From Candidatus Saccharimonadota bacterium (GTDB lineage Bacteria; Patescibacteriota; Gracilibacteria; UBA4473), in contig JAUIFI010000001.1 of assembly GCA_030429505.1 (NCBI GenBank), positions 870,001 to 902,000 of the forward strand: a stretch of DNA of 32,000 nt, written 5' to 3'. The notes beneath the pieces are model-generated. The model was given only the letters and a program-made list of their open reading frames with translations. It made no database searches and had not been told where the DNA came from. The translations under genes were made by a program, and so were the position numbers. Shown here one piece after another: positions 12,870 through 17,021 of the stretch. Every line of letters starts with the position of its first letter. Position 1 is the first letter of the stretch.

Positions 12870-15800
12870 TCAAATAAATTTCTCAACCTGCAAAATAATA
12901 TCCTCCCCATCAACCTCAATAACATCATTCTTAAGCGAAGTATCAATCGGACCACCATCAATAACCTCTTCTGCCAAAACCTCTCCAAAAATCATCAGTC
13001 CAAAGACTTCAAAAGCTTTTTTGATATCATCTGAATCAGTCTTATAGTGAAGAGAAATACGATCCGAAACATCAAAATCACTTGATTTTCTGAGGTCTTG
13101 AATCGCTCGAATTAGCTCACGAGCCGTTCCTTCGACCTTCAAACCTTCGGTAATTTCCGTATCGAGAAGAACCAAGACACGAGAATTCGCATCAGCCTCA
13201 ACTCCAACTTCACACACAAATCCCATCTCATACTCATTCTGTTCCAAAACCTCACCCCCAACCTCAACTCTCCCATCCTCCAAAGACTCATACTCGCCAT
13301 CCTTACCAGCTTTGATTAAAACTTGAACCTTTGCTCCCAAACGAGGTCCTACTTTCTTCGCATCAATCCGAATAATTTGCTGAGCAATACCCTTTGTAGA
13401 TTTCAAAATCTCTACTTCTTTGACATTCGCCTCCGCTTTAATAACCTCCAAATCCAAATGCTTCCCATCAACAGAAACAAATCGCAACTTACCAAGCGGT
13501 TGCCTCAATTTTATCTTTTTCCGAGACCGGATTCCTGCCGCTAGACCAACAATTTCTCGTGACAAATTAACCCTGTCTTCGGTCTTTGTATCAATCCAAG
13601 ACGAAACAGCACAAGGAAAAGATTCTAAATGGACAGATTCCCCCCCCTTCAAATCTTTGTACAATTTTTCCGCTACAAACGGACACACAGGCGCCAAAAT
13701 CTTGGACAGCGTCAGCAAGACATAGTGTAACGTCTCGTATCCTGATCGCTTTTCATTAGACATTCCATCTGCCCAAAATCGTCGTCGTGAACGACGCAGA
13801 TACCAGTTATTAAGTTTATCAATAAACACCGGAACAAGCTTCAATGCTCCCTCCAAATCATACGAATCAAACGCTTTTCGATATTCTCGAATTAGCGTCT
13901 GTAACTCTGATACAATCCATCGATCTAAATCAGAAACCAAAGTATGCTTTAATCCTTTCTCACGAGAATCACTATTCTCTGGATTATCATCCAAAATGTC
14001 ACACGGCAAAAAAGAAAACTCTTTTGGCTTCCATCCATCAATATTGGCATACGTAGAAAAAAACTGATATGCCGACCGTAAAGGCAAAATGACAGATTTT
14101 AAAACCTCTTCTACTCCCTTCTCCGAAAACCGCAAATTCTCTCCCCGAGCCACGGGAGAATTAAGCAAGTAAAACCGCATCGCATCTGCACCATATTTCT
14201 CGAAAACCAGATTCGGATCCGGATAATTTTTCTTAGATTTGGACATTTTTGCCCCATCCTCAGCCAAGACAATTCCGTTCGTAATGACATTCTTATATAC
14301 ATTCGTTCCAAAAAGTGCCACTCCCAACACATGCAAGTTATAAAACCAACACCGCGTCTGATCCAAACCCTCAGCAATAAAATCCGCTGGCTGAAAAGTC
14401 TTATCTTGTTCTTCAAAAGGATAATGCTTGGAAGCATACGGCATAGAACCTGACTCAAACCAGCAGTCCAAAACCTCAGGAATCCGGCGCATCACACCAC
14501 CCGTCTCTTCATTCTTCCAAGTCAGATCATCGATAAAATGCCGGTGCAAATCCGTCACCTTTTTCCCCGAAAGCTTTTCTAATTCTTCCCGAGAACCAAT
14601 CACCTGAACCTCTCCAGTCTTATCACATCGCCATACCGGTATGGGCGTTCCCCAATATCGATTACGAGAAATCGCCCAATCAGGAGCATTTTCCAATCCC
14701 TTCGCGAATCGCCCATCCTTCAAGTATGAAGGAATCCAATTAATATTTTTGTTTTGCTCCAAAAGCTGATCTTTGATTTTCTGCACATTCACAAACCACG
14801 TCTTAATCCCCCGATACATCAGGGCACACTCTGTCCGCCAACAATGCGGATAACTGTGACGAATTTGTTCCCTCTTAAAAAGCAGTCCCTTTCCCTTAAG
14901 CTCCGCCAACACCCAATCGTTCGCATTATATTCTTTCGAACCTTCGACCTCTAGATCAGAACGAAAATATCTATCTTGCAACTCCTTCACATCTTCTGCC
15001 GCTTCTGGATGTGTCTCGATATCCGTAAAATCAAAAAAACAGTTATCTGTAAACGGATACACAAGCTCCACCCCATTCGCCTGCAATATCCTCGCATCAT
15101 CCTCACCCGTCGGCGCCATATGCACAATCCCAGTTCCCTCAGTATCAGACACAAAATCATCAGCAAAAACCTGATGAGCGTTTTTTCGTCCCTTGAAGAA
15201 AGGAAAAACTGGTTTGTATTTTTTACCAATAAGTTCTGATCCCTTTATAAAGGTTTTTTCTCCTAAAGAAAAAACTGAGTTTAAATTTTCTTCATAATAA
15301 TTCTTAGAAATTATCAAACACTCTGGTGATAAAAGTTTCGTAGAAGCAATGGGCTTACTAAGTACTTCTGGATTTTTTAAATTATTCCTGTTTCCGCGTG
15401 GAACATAAGACAAAACTCCATCTTTTTCATAAACCTGAAGCTTAAGTTTCACATACTCCATTTCAGGATGAACCACCAAGCCCAAATTACTCGGCAATGT
15501 CCACGGCGTCGTCGTCCATGCTAGTAAATATGTCCCCGGCTCATCTTCTAGCTCAAACTTCACCGTCACCGCCGGATCATCAATGTCCTTATAATTCAAA
15601 TTCGCCTCAAAATTCGACAAAGGAGAGCCTAGTTTCGGAGAATAGGGAACTACCTTTTCTCCTTCATAAATCAAACCCTTCTTCCACAGCTCCGAAAATA
15701 CCCACCACACCGACTCCATAAACTCCGGATCCATCGTCTTGTAATCATCCTGAAAATCCACAAACCGACCCATTCGATCCACCGTAGCCTCCCAATCATC

Positions 15801-16190
15801 ACGACATCGCAACACCACCGATCGACACAATTCATTAAATTTTCCAATTCCCATCTTTTCAATCCCGGGTTTTCCACCAATCCTATGTTCCTTCTCCACC
15901 TGAAATTCCACCGGAACCCCATGACAATCCCAGCCCCACTTTCGCTCTACTCGATAGCCCTTCATCGTATAGTAACGAGGAATTGCATCTTTCAGTGTCC
16001 CTCCAACCATATGCCCATAATGCGGCAATCCCGTCGCAAACGGCGGCCCGTCAAAAAACACAAACGGACGCTCTTTGCTCCGAGAATCAACCGTTTTTTG
16101 AAAAATATTCTCCTTTTTCCAAAAAGACAATATTTCTTCTTCTGTTTGTGATACAGACTTTTTCGAATCCAGGGGAGGAAAAAAACTCAT
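12870..16190 (-). CDS. ileS: isoleucyl-tRNA synthetase, type 2 (eukaryote/actinobacteria-like)
   Basis: HIGH motif as PHYGHMVGG and KMSKS as GAKMSKSKKNYPDP. WCISRQ-like AISRNRYWGTPIPVW is present. The C-terminus EGTARELIRAIQDLRKSSDFDVSDRISL has no Cys-rich Zn cluster. Length is 1106 aa. Confidence 0.95.
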   Translation of the reverse strand: MSFFPPLDSKKSVSQTEEEILSFWKKENIFQKTVDSRSKERPFVFFDGPPFATGLPHYGHMVGGTLKDAIPRYYTMKGYRVERKWGWDCHGVPVEFQVEKEHRIGGKPGIEKMGIGKFNELCRSVVLRCRDDWEATVDRMGRFVDFQDDYKTMDPEFMESVWWVFSELWKKGLIYEGEKVVPYSPKLGSPLSNFEANLNYKDIDDPAVTVKFELEDEPGTYLLAWTTTPWTLPSNLGLVVHPEMEYVKLKLQVYEKDGVLSYVPRGNRNNLKNPEVLSKPIASTKLLSPECLIISKNYYEENLNSVFSLGEKTFIKGSELIGKKYKPVFPFFKGRKNAHQVFADDFVSDTEGTGIVHMAPTGEDDARILQANGVELVYPFTDNCFFDFTDIETHPEAAEDVKELQDRYFRSDLEVEGSKEYNANDWVLAELKGKGLLFKREQIRHSYPHCWRTECALMYRGIKTWFVNVQKIKDQLLEQNKNINWIPSYLKDGRFAKGLENAPDWAISRNRYWGTPIPVWRCDKTGEVQVIGSREELEKLSGKKVTDLHRHFIDDLTWKNEETGGVMRRIPEVLDCWFESGSMPYASKHYPFEEQDKTFQPADFIAEGLDQTRCWFYNLHVLGVALFGTNVYKNVITNGIVLAEDGAKMSKSKKNYPDPNLVFEKYGADAMRFYLLNSPVARGENLRFSEKGVEEVLKSVILPLRSAYQFFSTYANIDGWKPKEFSFLPCDILDDNPENSDSREKGLKHTLVSDLDRWIVSELQTLIREYRKAFDSYDLEGALKLVPVFIDKLNNWYLRRSRRRFWADGMSNEKRSGYETLHYVLLTLSKILAPVCPFVAEKLYKDLKGGESVHLESFPCAVSSWIDTKTEDRVNLSREIVGLAAGIRSRKKIKLRQPLGKLRFVSVDGKHLDLEVIKAEANVKEVEILKSTKGIAQQIIRIDAKKVGPRLGAKVQVLIKAGKDGEYESLEDGRVEVGGEVLEQNEYEMGFVCEVGVEADANSRVLVLLDTEITEGLKVEGTARELIRAIQDLRKSSDFDVSDRISLHYKTDSDDIKKAFEVFGLMIFGEVLAEEVIDGGPIDTSLKNDVIEVDGEDIILQVEKFI

Positions 16191-16645
16191 TGGGAATGTT
16201 CAAAATCAGAAATTTTCTGCAGTCGGGACACATGGCGTCCACCTTCAAACTCCGTATCAAGCCACAGCTTCACCGCCTCCTTTGCTTCATCAGTAGAGAG
16301 AAAGCGAGCTCCAAGCGACAAAACATTCGCATTATTGTGCTGACGAGATAACTTCACAATCTCCAAGTCTCCTCCATAAAAAAGTGCCGCACGAATTCCC
16401 TTTGTCTTATTCGCCGCCAAGGCCTCCCCTTGTCCAGAGCCACCAAAAACAATCCCAAAGCATTCATCGACACATTCAGATACTTTTTGAGCTACTTTCA
16501 GGATGAAATCCGGATAATCATCATCCGGCTGCAACACATACGCCCCACAGTCCTCAACTTCACACCCAAGTTCAAGCAAATAAGACTTTATATCATCTTT
16601 CAACGCAAAACCTGCGTGATCGGTACCAAGAAAAATTTTAACCAT
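16187..16645 (-). CDS. rpiB: ribose-5-phosphate isomerase B (Glu-type active site)
   Basis: MVKIFLGTDHAGFALK and GGSGQGEALAANK are present. As I recall, this is the Mycobacterium-type GGSGxGE motif rather than the E. coli CGTG motif. The start is the internal ATG at 16645, and the stop overlaps the ileS start (ATGA at 16187-16190). Confidence 0.85.
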   Translation of the reverse strand: MVKIFLGTDHAGFALKDDIKSYLLELGCEVEDCGAYVLQPDDDYPDFILKVAQKVSECVDECFGIVFGGSGQGEALAANKTKGIRAALFYGGDLEIVKLSRQHNNANVLSLGARFLSTDEAKEAVKLWLDTEFEGGRHVSRLQKISDFEHSQ

Positions 16646-16679
16646 AAAAAAAACGCATAAGAAAACATTTTCTTCTACG
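16646..16679 (-). terminator. intrinsic terminator of the T-box-like leader
   Basis: Minus strand reads CGUAGAAGAAA-AUGU-UUUCUUAUGCG (16679-16654): 10 pairs with one G/A mismatch and one G.U. It is followed directly by U8 (16653-16646) and then the rpiB AUG. Confidence 0.55.
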
Positions 16680-16987
16680 AGAACCTCACCAAAGGTGGGC
16701 GGTACCATCTCGATTCAAGGTTTTAAAAGTTCGAACTCTTTGTGTTTCTGAGTTCGAACTTGGCAAAAACCAAGCTCTTCATTATTTGATAACGCTCAAA
16801 GCCTTGTCCCAGACTTGTTCTGGAATCTGCAGACAAAAACGATCTGGTCTACTCTCGATTCCTGTCATCCTGAATTTATTTCAGGATCTCTTCAACAAAA
16901 ACCAATTTCTTCAGACTCCCATTCCGATAAGTCAGAAATCGTGGGTGATAGCCACTCAATGGGATTTGTAAAAAACTCATAAAGAAC
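16646..16987 (-). promoter_or_regulatory. T-box-like riboswitch leader of the rpiB-ileS operon (3' domain well supported, Stem I unresolved)
   Basis: The minus strand reads CGAGA (16712-16708), UGGUACC (16707-16701), GCCCACC-UUU-GGUGAGGU (16700-16683), UCUCG (16682-16678). This gives helix A1, a 7-nt UGGNACC bulge and a capped helix A2. The core UGGUACCGC matches the T-box consensus. A perfect 12-bp hairpin (16761-16750 / 16738-16727) sits at the Stem III position, and the terminator shares C16679/G16678 with A1. Confidence 0.5.
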
Positions 16988-16993
16988 AAAGGT

Positions 16994-17021
16994 ATCATAT
17001 CCTCCCACACTACAAAGTCAA
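16994..17021 (-). promoter_or_regulatory. sigma70-type promoter for the leader-rpiB-ileS unit
   Basis: On the minus strand TTGACT (17021-17016), a 16-nt spacer, then TATGAT (16999-16994). It starts 7 nt after the stop of the upstream NifS-like gene. Confidence 0.4.

Follow-up and report, generated by a model that had tools for sequence, protein, structure and literature searches.

The rpiB-ileS locus

A stretch of 32,000 nt (hereafter the window) from the genome assembly of a Candidatus Saccharimonadota bacterium (contig JAUIFI010000001.1, positions 870,001 to 902,000) carries, on its minus strand, the genes rpiB and ileS preceded by an RNA leader of about 340 nt that spans approximately 16987-16646. 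The initial annotation of this DNA, which was made from the letters alone, proposed a T-box-like antiterminator/terminator switch in front of these genes. This proposal was borne out by a covariance model match, by covariation and by homologous leaders in related genomes, and the leader is almost certainly a T-box riboswitch. The coordinates that had been given for the A1 helix, the bulge, the A2 helix, the terminator, a 12-bp hairpin, the promoter and an AUC-A triplet were all exact on the minus strand. Features of the locus are listed below in the order of transcription; all positions in the leader refer to the minus strand of the window.

16994-17021, minus strand: sigma-70-like promoter, TTGACT (-35 box), 16-nt spacer, TATGAT (-10 box); 10/12 matches
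16981-16987, minus strand: conserved GUUCUUU, 7 nt 3' of the -10 box
16960-16964, minus strand: 5' strand (UCCCA) of the C-stem of a predicted kink-turn (K-turn), pairing with UGGGA at 16921-16917; 97-100% paired
16956-16959, minus strand: K-turn bulge UU (AUU if A16960 is unpaired) and 5' G-A of the tandem sheared G.A pairs; from sequence
16941-16955, minus strand: ultrashort Stem I, 4-bp GUGG/CCAC with the 7-nt apical loop CUAUCAC; from covariation and RNAalifold
16939-16940, minus strand: 3' G-A of the K-turn tandem G.A pairs; from sequence
16922-16937, minus strand: hairpin X, UUCUGA-CUUA-UCGGAA, between the K-turn 3' G-A and the C-stem 3' strand
16917-16921, minus strand: K-turn C-stem 3' strand UGGGA; from covariation
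16842-16916, minus strand: Stem II, proximal helix GUCUG 16916-16912 / CAGAU 16846-16842; all five pairs covary
16785-16841, minus strand: Stem IIA/B pseudoknot, IIA being CGU 16841-16839 / GCG 16795-16793
16775-16784, minus strand: purine-rich linker UAAUGAAGAG, with a conserved (R)AG just 5' of Stem III
16759-16774, minus strand: short Stem III, CUUGG-UUUUUG-CCAAG, 5 bp, positioned as the Stem III of relatives
16727-16761, minus strand: perfect 12-bp hairpin (16761-16750 / 16738-16727), overlapping Stem III by 3 nt
16678-16712, minus strand: antiterminator (T-box proper), A1 being CGAGA 16712-16708 / UCUCG 16682-16678; -11.2 kcal/mol
16646-16679, minus strand: terminator-like hairpin 16679-16654 and U8 16653-16646; 10 pairs, one mismatch, -6.1 kcal/mol
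16187-16645, minus strand: rpiB, 152 aa, LacAB_rpiB, the first gene 3' of the leader
12870-16190, minus strand: ileS, type-2-like isoleucyl-tRNA synthetase (IleRS), 1106 aa, with tRNA-synt_1, Anticodon_1 and a C-terminal DUF5915

Homologous leaders and their distribution

A search with the Rfam T-box model RF00230 (551 nt) aligned the leader over its full length but weakly (25.1 bits, E = 0.0013), and no match in the window reached the gathering score of 93 bits. Leaders of the Candidate Phyla Radiation (CPR) scored only 25-41 bits against this threshold (for example, 40.6 for L105 and 30.7 for L097), and an Rfam scan of six relatives (54 kb, E < 1) gave no T-box match. Leaders of relatives were instead recognised by eye and with a custom covariance model, R1, which was built from eight compact homologous leaders of Gracilibacteria/Altimarinota genomes, the window being left out. 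R1 matched the window at 16967-16649 with 92.9 bits (E ~ 7e-23), its sole significant match in the 32 kb.

The closest IleRS relatives were found in metagenome-assembled genomes (MAGs) labelled Candidatus Gracilibacteria or Altimarinota (58-70% identity), and the closest RpiB relatives were ordinary Patescibacteria enzymes. The IleRS relatives place the window in a CPR/Patescibacteria bacterium, and the earlier impression that both proteins look actinobacteria-like is not borne out by these relationships. All six genome loci first examined had a recognisably homologous leader directly 5' of ileS. Contigs with IleRS homologues added L096, L097, L100, L102, L103 and L105 (Peregrinibacteria, CP065009), and a pattern scan of metagenomes gave 15 matches, 13 of them by chance and two real: L087, identical to L022, and L092. 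R1 recovered every other leader and one new, in L098/L099. This brought the total to 15 distinct leaders; the 14 whose downstream gene was verified (all but L092) are linked to ileS without exception. R1 scores were 155-189 bits for the eight training leaders and 108-116 bits for L001, L092 and L004; the window ranked fourth-lowest among the 15 leaders and lowest among the 12 closest, and its leader was 120-130 nt longer than those of compact relatives. R1 detected no leader 5' of ileS in L101, L104 and L106, so the distribution is patchy. In the literature searched we found no report that connects T-boxes with the Candidate Phyla Radiation, Patescibacteria, Gracilibacteria or other CPR names, which is not proof of novelty.

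Two other observations were made on these contigs. A Flavobacterium-like IleRS is encoded on both L033 (labelled Bifidobacterium breve MAG) and L046 (labelled Rhizobium sp. MAG), and Flavo-1 RNA is present on L033; the two contigs are probably mis-binned. Also, a AAUCCCGCGAAA(U/A) motif recurs in and around the L001 and L092 leaders, including Stem III and the Stem II tip (in L001 at 2487-2505, 2610-2625, 2850-2870 and 2940-2955), and looks like a genome-specific small repeat.

Covariation of the leaders

Comparative alignment revealed both covariation and an invariant AUC triplet in the 15 leaders. In a plain MAFFT alignment that was not fitted to any structure, 94.6% of cells formed standard pairs, compared with 77.1% in shuffles, and 24 of 37 pairs had changes on both sides. 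The covariation score was 0.611, falling to 0.163 or less when the partners were slid by 1-3 columns, and none of 500 shuffles attained the observed value. On the same alignment RNAalifold independently predicted the C-stem, Stem I, hairpin X, Stem II, IIA, A1 and A2, with compensation in 29 of 39 predicted pairs. In the model-fitted alignment of 15 sequences, double changes occurred in 31/34 pairs. The 342-nt window leader itself had a folding z-score of -4.07, and its minimum free energy (MFE) structure included a three-way junction and the antiterminator.

These data bear on the possibility of a chance resemblance, or of some other structured leader (such as a protein-binding K-turn RNA) that merely contains the UGGUACCGC word. 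The T-box 9-mer TGGNACCGC alone is not above chance, because it occurred at least once in 31 of 100 shuffles, and this fits such an explanation, as does an Rfam score far under the gathering score. It is contradicted by the R1 match and the covariation, which extends to the T-box-specific modules (F-box pseudoknot, S-turn and 7-nt bulge), while the consistent ileS linkage and a specifier that is an invariant Ile codon also speak against it; we regard it as extremely improbable.

The decoding half

The 5' end of the transcript is probably marked by GUUCUUU, judging from its position relative to the -10 box. In relatives, a -10-like box lies at the same distance from this element as in the window, and G(U/C)UCUUU occurs about 20 nt 5' of AAAUCCC and the K-turn in 11/15 leaders (GUUCUUU equivalents in L001, L003, L022, L024, L092, L096, L100 and L103; GCUCUUU in L002 and L004). 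No pairing partner of this element was consistent across leaders when the S-turn strand, the purine string and the terminator arm were tried.

A K-turn appears to be present at the base of Stem I, its fold being predicted from sequence. Double changes were seen at 3-4 of the 5 C-stem pairs, and NUGA on the 5' side with GA on the 3' side was found in 10 of the 14 leaders aligned at the K-turn. All four pairs of the very short Stem I covary, and this helix was among those predicted from the unfitted alignment. Its apical loop carries the specifier AUC (16949-16947), followed by A16946. Counted from the U of UCCC, C14 lies in the loop, A16-U17-C18 form the codon, and A19 comes next. The initial annotation had listed four Ile-codon candidates, of which only the AUC in the GUGG/CCAC loop, invariant in 15/15 leaders, was retained. 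The other three were rejected: AUA-A at 16879 falls within an insert that the window shares with L004 alone, AUC-A at 16790 spans the point where the F-box meets a Stem IIB strand, and GAA-AUU at 16909 forms the 5' side of the S-turn in Stem II. The description of the 5' half as non-canonical holds in that there is no long Stem I with an AG bulge and distal loop, the interdigitated T-loop motif (IDTM), but a K-turn and a 4-bp helix capped by the specifier loop take its place.

Hairpin X was observed in 13/15 leaders with unrelated, covarying sequences (L105 and L099 have none), and it was also part of the single-sequence MFE structure of the window. With this hairpin inserted, the predicted K-turn becomes a three-way junction.

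In Stem II, the S-turn internal loop places AAGAAA (16911-16906) opposite GAGUAGAC (16854-16847), and its AGAA and UAGA cores are invariant across leaders. The stem continues in the window as a 51-nt distal extension (16905-16855), which includes AGAGA and the hairpin CCUGAAAUAAAUUCAGG and which only L004 shares. AGAGA and this hairpin misled cmscan into calling the region Stem I (16931-16840), with AGAGA aligned to the AG bulge; we rejected this placement, the region being Stem II with a lineage-specific extension. At the Stem II tip of the window and of L004 (about 2770-2810), an A/G-rich bulge (AGAGA and AUAAGA, respectively) is accompanied by a hairpin (U/C)CCUGAAAUAAAUUCAGG(A/G), one base pair of which differs between the two by a compensatory change. 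The helix from S-turn to tip has about 20 layers, roughly the reach of a canonical Stem I.

The pseudoknot follows, with the F-box GCGUUA at 16795-16790 and IIB formed by UUUGA (16800-16796) and UCAAA (16789-16785); the comparison of leaders supports IIA as well as IIB. A lineage-specific insert of 38 nt (16838-16801) occupies the IIA loop, and the IIA pairs covary across leaders (CGG/CCG, CGU/ACG, CGA/UCG, CAG/CUG and CGU/GCG). The position of the purine-rich linker is kept as UAAG or AAAG in relatives; a RAG or RRRxG motif has been described for T-boxes. Counterparts of the short Stem III were found in L022, L001, L004, L097 and L105, and the window hairpin stands 3' of GAAGAG, followed by the 12-bp insert. 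The perfect 12-bp hairpin, previously placed at the Stem III position, does exist there, but as a lineage-specific insert beside the 5-bp Stem III. It was rejected both as a conserved Stem III (there is no counterpart in relatives) and as a repeat element (there is no second copy in the window).

The antiterminator and the proposed switch

The 7-nt bulge UGGUACC (16707-16701) lies between A1 and A2, and A2 consists of GCCCACC-UUU-GGUGAGGU (16700-16683) with a G.U closing pair and, according to RNAfold, one bulged A. Conservation of this bulge and of the A1/A2 pairings in orthologous leaders, on which the initial annotation had staked its claim, was found: UGGNACC is present in 15/15 leaders and UGGUACC in 14/15, and both helices covary. 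The closing pair of A2 is G.U in the window and G-C in 10/15 leaders.

The U8 tract of the terminator-like hairpin ends directly at the rpiB AUG (16645). The hairpin and A1 have C16679 and G16678 in common; deprived of these two bases, the hairpin retains only -2.7 kcal/mol, and 5 nt then separate it from the U-run. In 14/15 leaders a hairpin with 4-8 U directly behind it was predicted, with zero spacer to A1. This constant spacing despite unrelated hairpin sequences suggests that hairpin and A1 are coupled. In L099 the terminator spans the entire A1 3' strand, which is the classical design, and RNAfold predicted no stable hairpin in L097. No Shine-Dalgarno (SD) or anti-SD sequence was visible.

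The T-box very probably senses tRNA-Ile, as its specifier and synthetase linkage suggest. On balance, we read the leader as a T-box specific for tRNA-Ile(GAU) that probably controls the rpiB-ileS operon by transcription attenuation. The decoding architecture of this model derives from homology and covariation, and its tRNA-binding steps from established T-box knowledge. The K-turn would set the geometry, the apical loop of the 4-bp Stem I would present AUC to the anticodon GAU, the Stem II S-turn would clamp the codon-anticodon helix, and the IIA/B pseudoknot would hold the decoding parts in position; the decoding half has no platform for the tRNA elbow. If the tRNA is uncharged, its 3' ACCA would pair with UGGU of the bulge. 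A1 would then be locked and keep C16679 and G16678, so that the hairpin loses the only G-C pairs by its U8 tract; weakened to -2.7 kcal/mol and ending 5 nt before the U-run, it would allow the polymerase to read into rpiB-ileS. When the tRNA is charged, neither A1 nor A2 could anneal its 3' strand, and the full hairpin would form against the U-run and stop transcription just before the rpiB AUG.

Several observations weigh against this model. Among the 15 leaders the codon is followed by A, C or U, so that a purine is not conserved at this place. According to reviews, transcriptional T-boxes generally need an elbow-binding IDTM and Stem III, the latter being indispensable for binding the tRNA 3' end; the window has no IDTM, and Stem III is absent in 7/15 leaders (L002, L003, L024, L096, L100, L102 and L103). 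Terminator and antiterminator share 2 nt in the window and 0-5 nt in the family as a whole, with 0 nt in 6/15 leaders (RNAfold), and the antiterminator is at least as stable as the hairpin in 14/15 leaders, including the window (-11.2 versus -6.1 kcal/mol). Classical mutually exclusive folding is not evident, because both structures coexist in the MFE fold, and most leaders have weak hairpins (-2 to -9 kcal/mol). The window leader contains three large lineage-specific inserts. L003 (Altimarinota) has UGGCACC at 2935-2941 in place of UGGUACC, which would imply a G discriminator or a mismatch with A73. Bacterial tRNA-Ile generally carries A73. No tRNA-Ile gene was present in the window or in any locus examined.

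As a side observation, the seven compact leaders without Stem III have only about 15 nt of A-rich linker (e.g. AAUUAAGUAACAAUU) between the IIB 3' strand and A1.

A serious rival to termination is a translational component, in which translation would be the main or an additional target of the same sensor: the hairpin at the start codon would block 30S loading, which here would proceed without a Shine-Dalgarno sequence, and the tRNA-stabilised antiterminator would relieve the block. Known T-boxes with the specifier in an apical loop are mostly translational, and the weakness of the hairpins as terminators and the lack of a visible SD-like sequence fit this scheme. Start codons lie 0-10 nt 3' of the U-run in 8 of the 14 leaders read, including the window, and by manual reading CAUGAA beside A1 in L097 can pair with UUCAUG at the start codon. 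However, a U-run of 4-8 stands directly 3' of each of the 14 predicted hairpins, as in intrinsic terminators, six leaders have their start codon 18-60 nt further 3', beyond masking by the hairpin, and translational control would face the identical problem of minimal overlap. We consider this alternative unlikely, and hold with moderate confidence to regulation mainly at termination, with a minimal-overlap switch favoured.

The length of the window leader and its low R1 rank also raise the question of whether this copy is a decaying relic, made constitutive by the insertion of rpiB and by the inserts that interrupt Stem II and the IIA loop and adjoin Stem III. Such an explanation would agree with an antiterminator (-11.2 kcal/mol) that is stabler than the terminator (-6.1 kcal/mol). 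Nevertheless, the core is intact, including AUC, the G-A pairs, the S-turn, the F-box, IIA, UGGUACC, the A2 G.U pair and A1/A2 complementarity. All inserts are at helix tips or in loops, which are tolerated sites in T-boxes, and the Stem II insert has been kept with a compensatory change in L004. A relic is very improbable.

The genes following the leader

The TGA stop codon of rpiB overlaps the ATG of ileS (ATGA). The product of ileS matches the AUC specifier, and IleRS is encoded 3' of the leader in the window and at 13 other leaders. In 12 relatives the T-box lies directly 5' of ileS, whereas rpiB intervenes in the window. With this arrangement, and with RpiB relatives that are ordinary enzymes, rpiB is best seen as a passenger in the ileS regulon; from sequence comparison it looks like a passenger of this lineage and not a pentose-phosphate link. 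The earlier remark that a pentose-phosphate enzyme comes first in the operon is therefore correct for this genome but does not extend to relatives, one of which has a different passenger. This is the L099 lineage (1087-2407, equivalent to L098 2182-3001), where the T-box is followed by a hexapeptide-repeat gene and then by ileS; the hexapeptide-repeat gene is a second, independent passenger. Its open reading frame (ORF) contains an in-frame TGA, and TGA is therefore probably a sense codon in the L099 lineage (genetic code 25), unlike in the window. Code 25 was rejected for the window, where 10 of 29 ORFs terminate in TGA and this codon takes part in ATGA overlaps.

The Pfam match of rpiB and its homologues start at the ATG at 16645. 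The public rpiB call (P0121, 173 aa) begins at an ATG inside the T-box bulge (GAG-AUG-GUACC, 16708) and adds 21 spurious residues through A2 and the terminator (16646-16708). The public gene start thus lies in the riboswitch, and the annotation needs correction.

Most Gracilibacteria/Peregrinibacteria IleRS proteins have 1200-1860 aa and contain an inserted His_Phos_1 domain (PF00300), in some cases together with GNAT or further domains. At 1106 aa, the IleRS of the window contains no His_Phos_1, GNAT or other such insertion. Across window positions 1-32000, GC skew on the plus strand was strongly negative throughout (-0.08 to -0.40), whatever the gene strand.

Comparison with known T-boxes

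The closest likeness was to the Actinobacterial ileS class II T-boxes (Nocardia farcinica, PDB 6UFM; Mycobacterium tuberculosis, PDB 6UFG), as characterised in reviews and later papers. Both groups have a basal K-turn, a very short Stem I that carries AUC in its apical loop, no elbow-binding IDTM, a Stem II S-turn with an A-rich 5' strand opposite A-G-A, a IIA/B pseudoknot with an F-box ((C)CGUCA in Actinobacteria), RAG purines and a UGGNACC bulge, and both regulate a type-2-like ileS. The register is that of N. farcinica, with C14 in the loop and a codon that ends at C18 and is followed by A19, and the window F-box GCGUUA corresponds to CCGUCA in N. farcinica and to CGUCA in M. tuberculosis. 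Judged from sequence features, the decoding half of the CPR leaders is of the short-Stem-I ileS class known from Actinobacteria. The parallel with truncated-Stem-I ileS T-boxes of Actinobacteria drawn by the initial annotation was therefore apt in architecture and in the N. farcinica register, but not in taxonomy. These Actinobacterial T-boxes were reportedly described by Sherwood et al. in 2015.

Several differences were also observed. The hosts here are CPR/Patescibacteria, hairpin X is inserted in the non-bulged K-turn strand of 13/15 CPR leaders, IIB is longer (5-6 bp), and Stem III is often lost (7/15). In contrast to the G.U sensor pair of the Actinobacterial class, the A2 closing pair is usually G-C, and some leaders have a pyrimidine directly 3' of the codon. 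The output also differs: the Actinobacterial class uses an SD sequestrator, whereas 14/15 CPR leaders have a hairpin and U4-8, with no SD/anti-SD.

Canonical RF00230 T-boxes, such as the Firmicute ileS leaders L032 (101.9 bits) and L026 (90.1 bits), have AUC followed by A, a K-turn, a Stem II S-turn, a CGUUA F-box, UGGUACC and a terminator with U-run in common with the window. Unlike the CPR leaders, they have a long Stem I that bears an AG bulge and a distal loop (IDTM) and holds the specifier in an internal loop; in the Firmicute ileS T-boxes this Stem I contains GAAAAUCA. Their terminator uses the entire 3' half of the antiterminator as its 5' strand.

A K-turn elaborated into a three-way junction is known from thiamine pyrophosphate (TPP) riboswitches as the k-junction, which is said to have been described by the Lilley laboratory in 2014. 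To our knowledge this motif has not been reported in T-boxes. Both the k-junction and the predicted junction at hairpin X have a third helix that emerges from a K-turn-like element; the likeness is an analogy only, drawn here from the letters of the leaders.

It is conceivable, and we suggest it tentatively, that the CPR leaders form a T-box class of their own, which would act by termination without elbow contact and often without Stem III, with a terminator that abuts A1 and competes either for 0-2 bp or through steric or stacking exclusion, and with a K-turn in the form of a three-way junction.

Significance

T-boxes serve as a model for RNA-RNA recognition and as antibiotic targets, and their known range is mainly Firmicutes and Actinobacteria. 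A T-box family supported by covariation is now seen in ultra-small, uncultured CPR/Patescibacteria, below the detection level of Rfam. Its stripped-down short-Stem-I form, so far described only in Actinobacteria, is found here in Gracilibacteria-like CPR, where the minimal "Actinobacterial" decoding module is joined to a terminator-like output, with minimal overlap and frequent loss of Stem III. Unrelated genes (rpiB here, the hexapeptide-repeat gene in L099) can join an operon controlled by an amino acid. Compact natural variants of about 190 nt are suited to tests of which parts a T-box needs in order to sense tRNA during transcription. Should the termination model prove right, the family is a counter-example to the IDTM and Stem III requirement, and if the CPR leaders are indeed a class of their own, neither the need for an IDTM nor the indispensability of Stem III would be universal.

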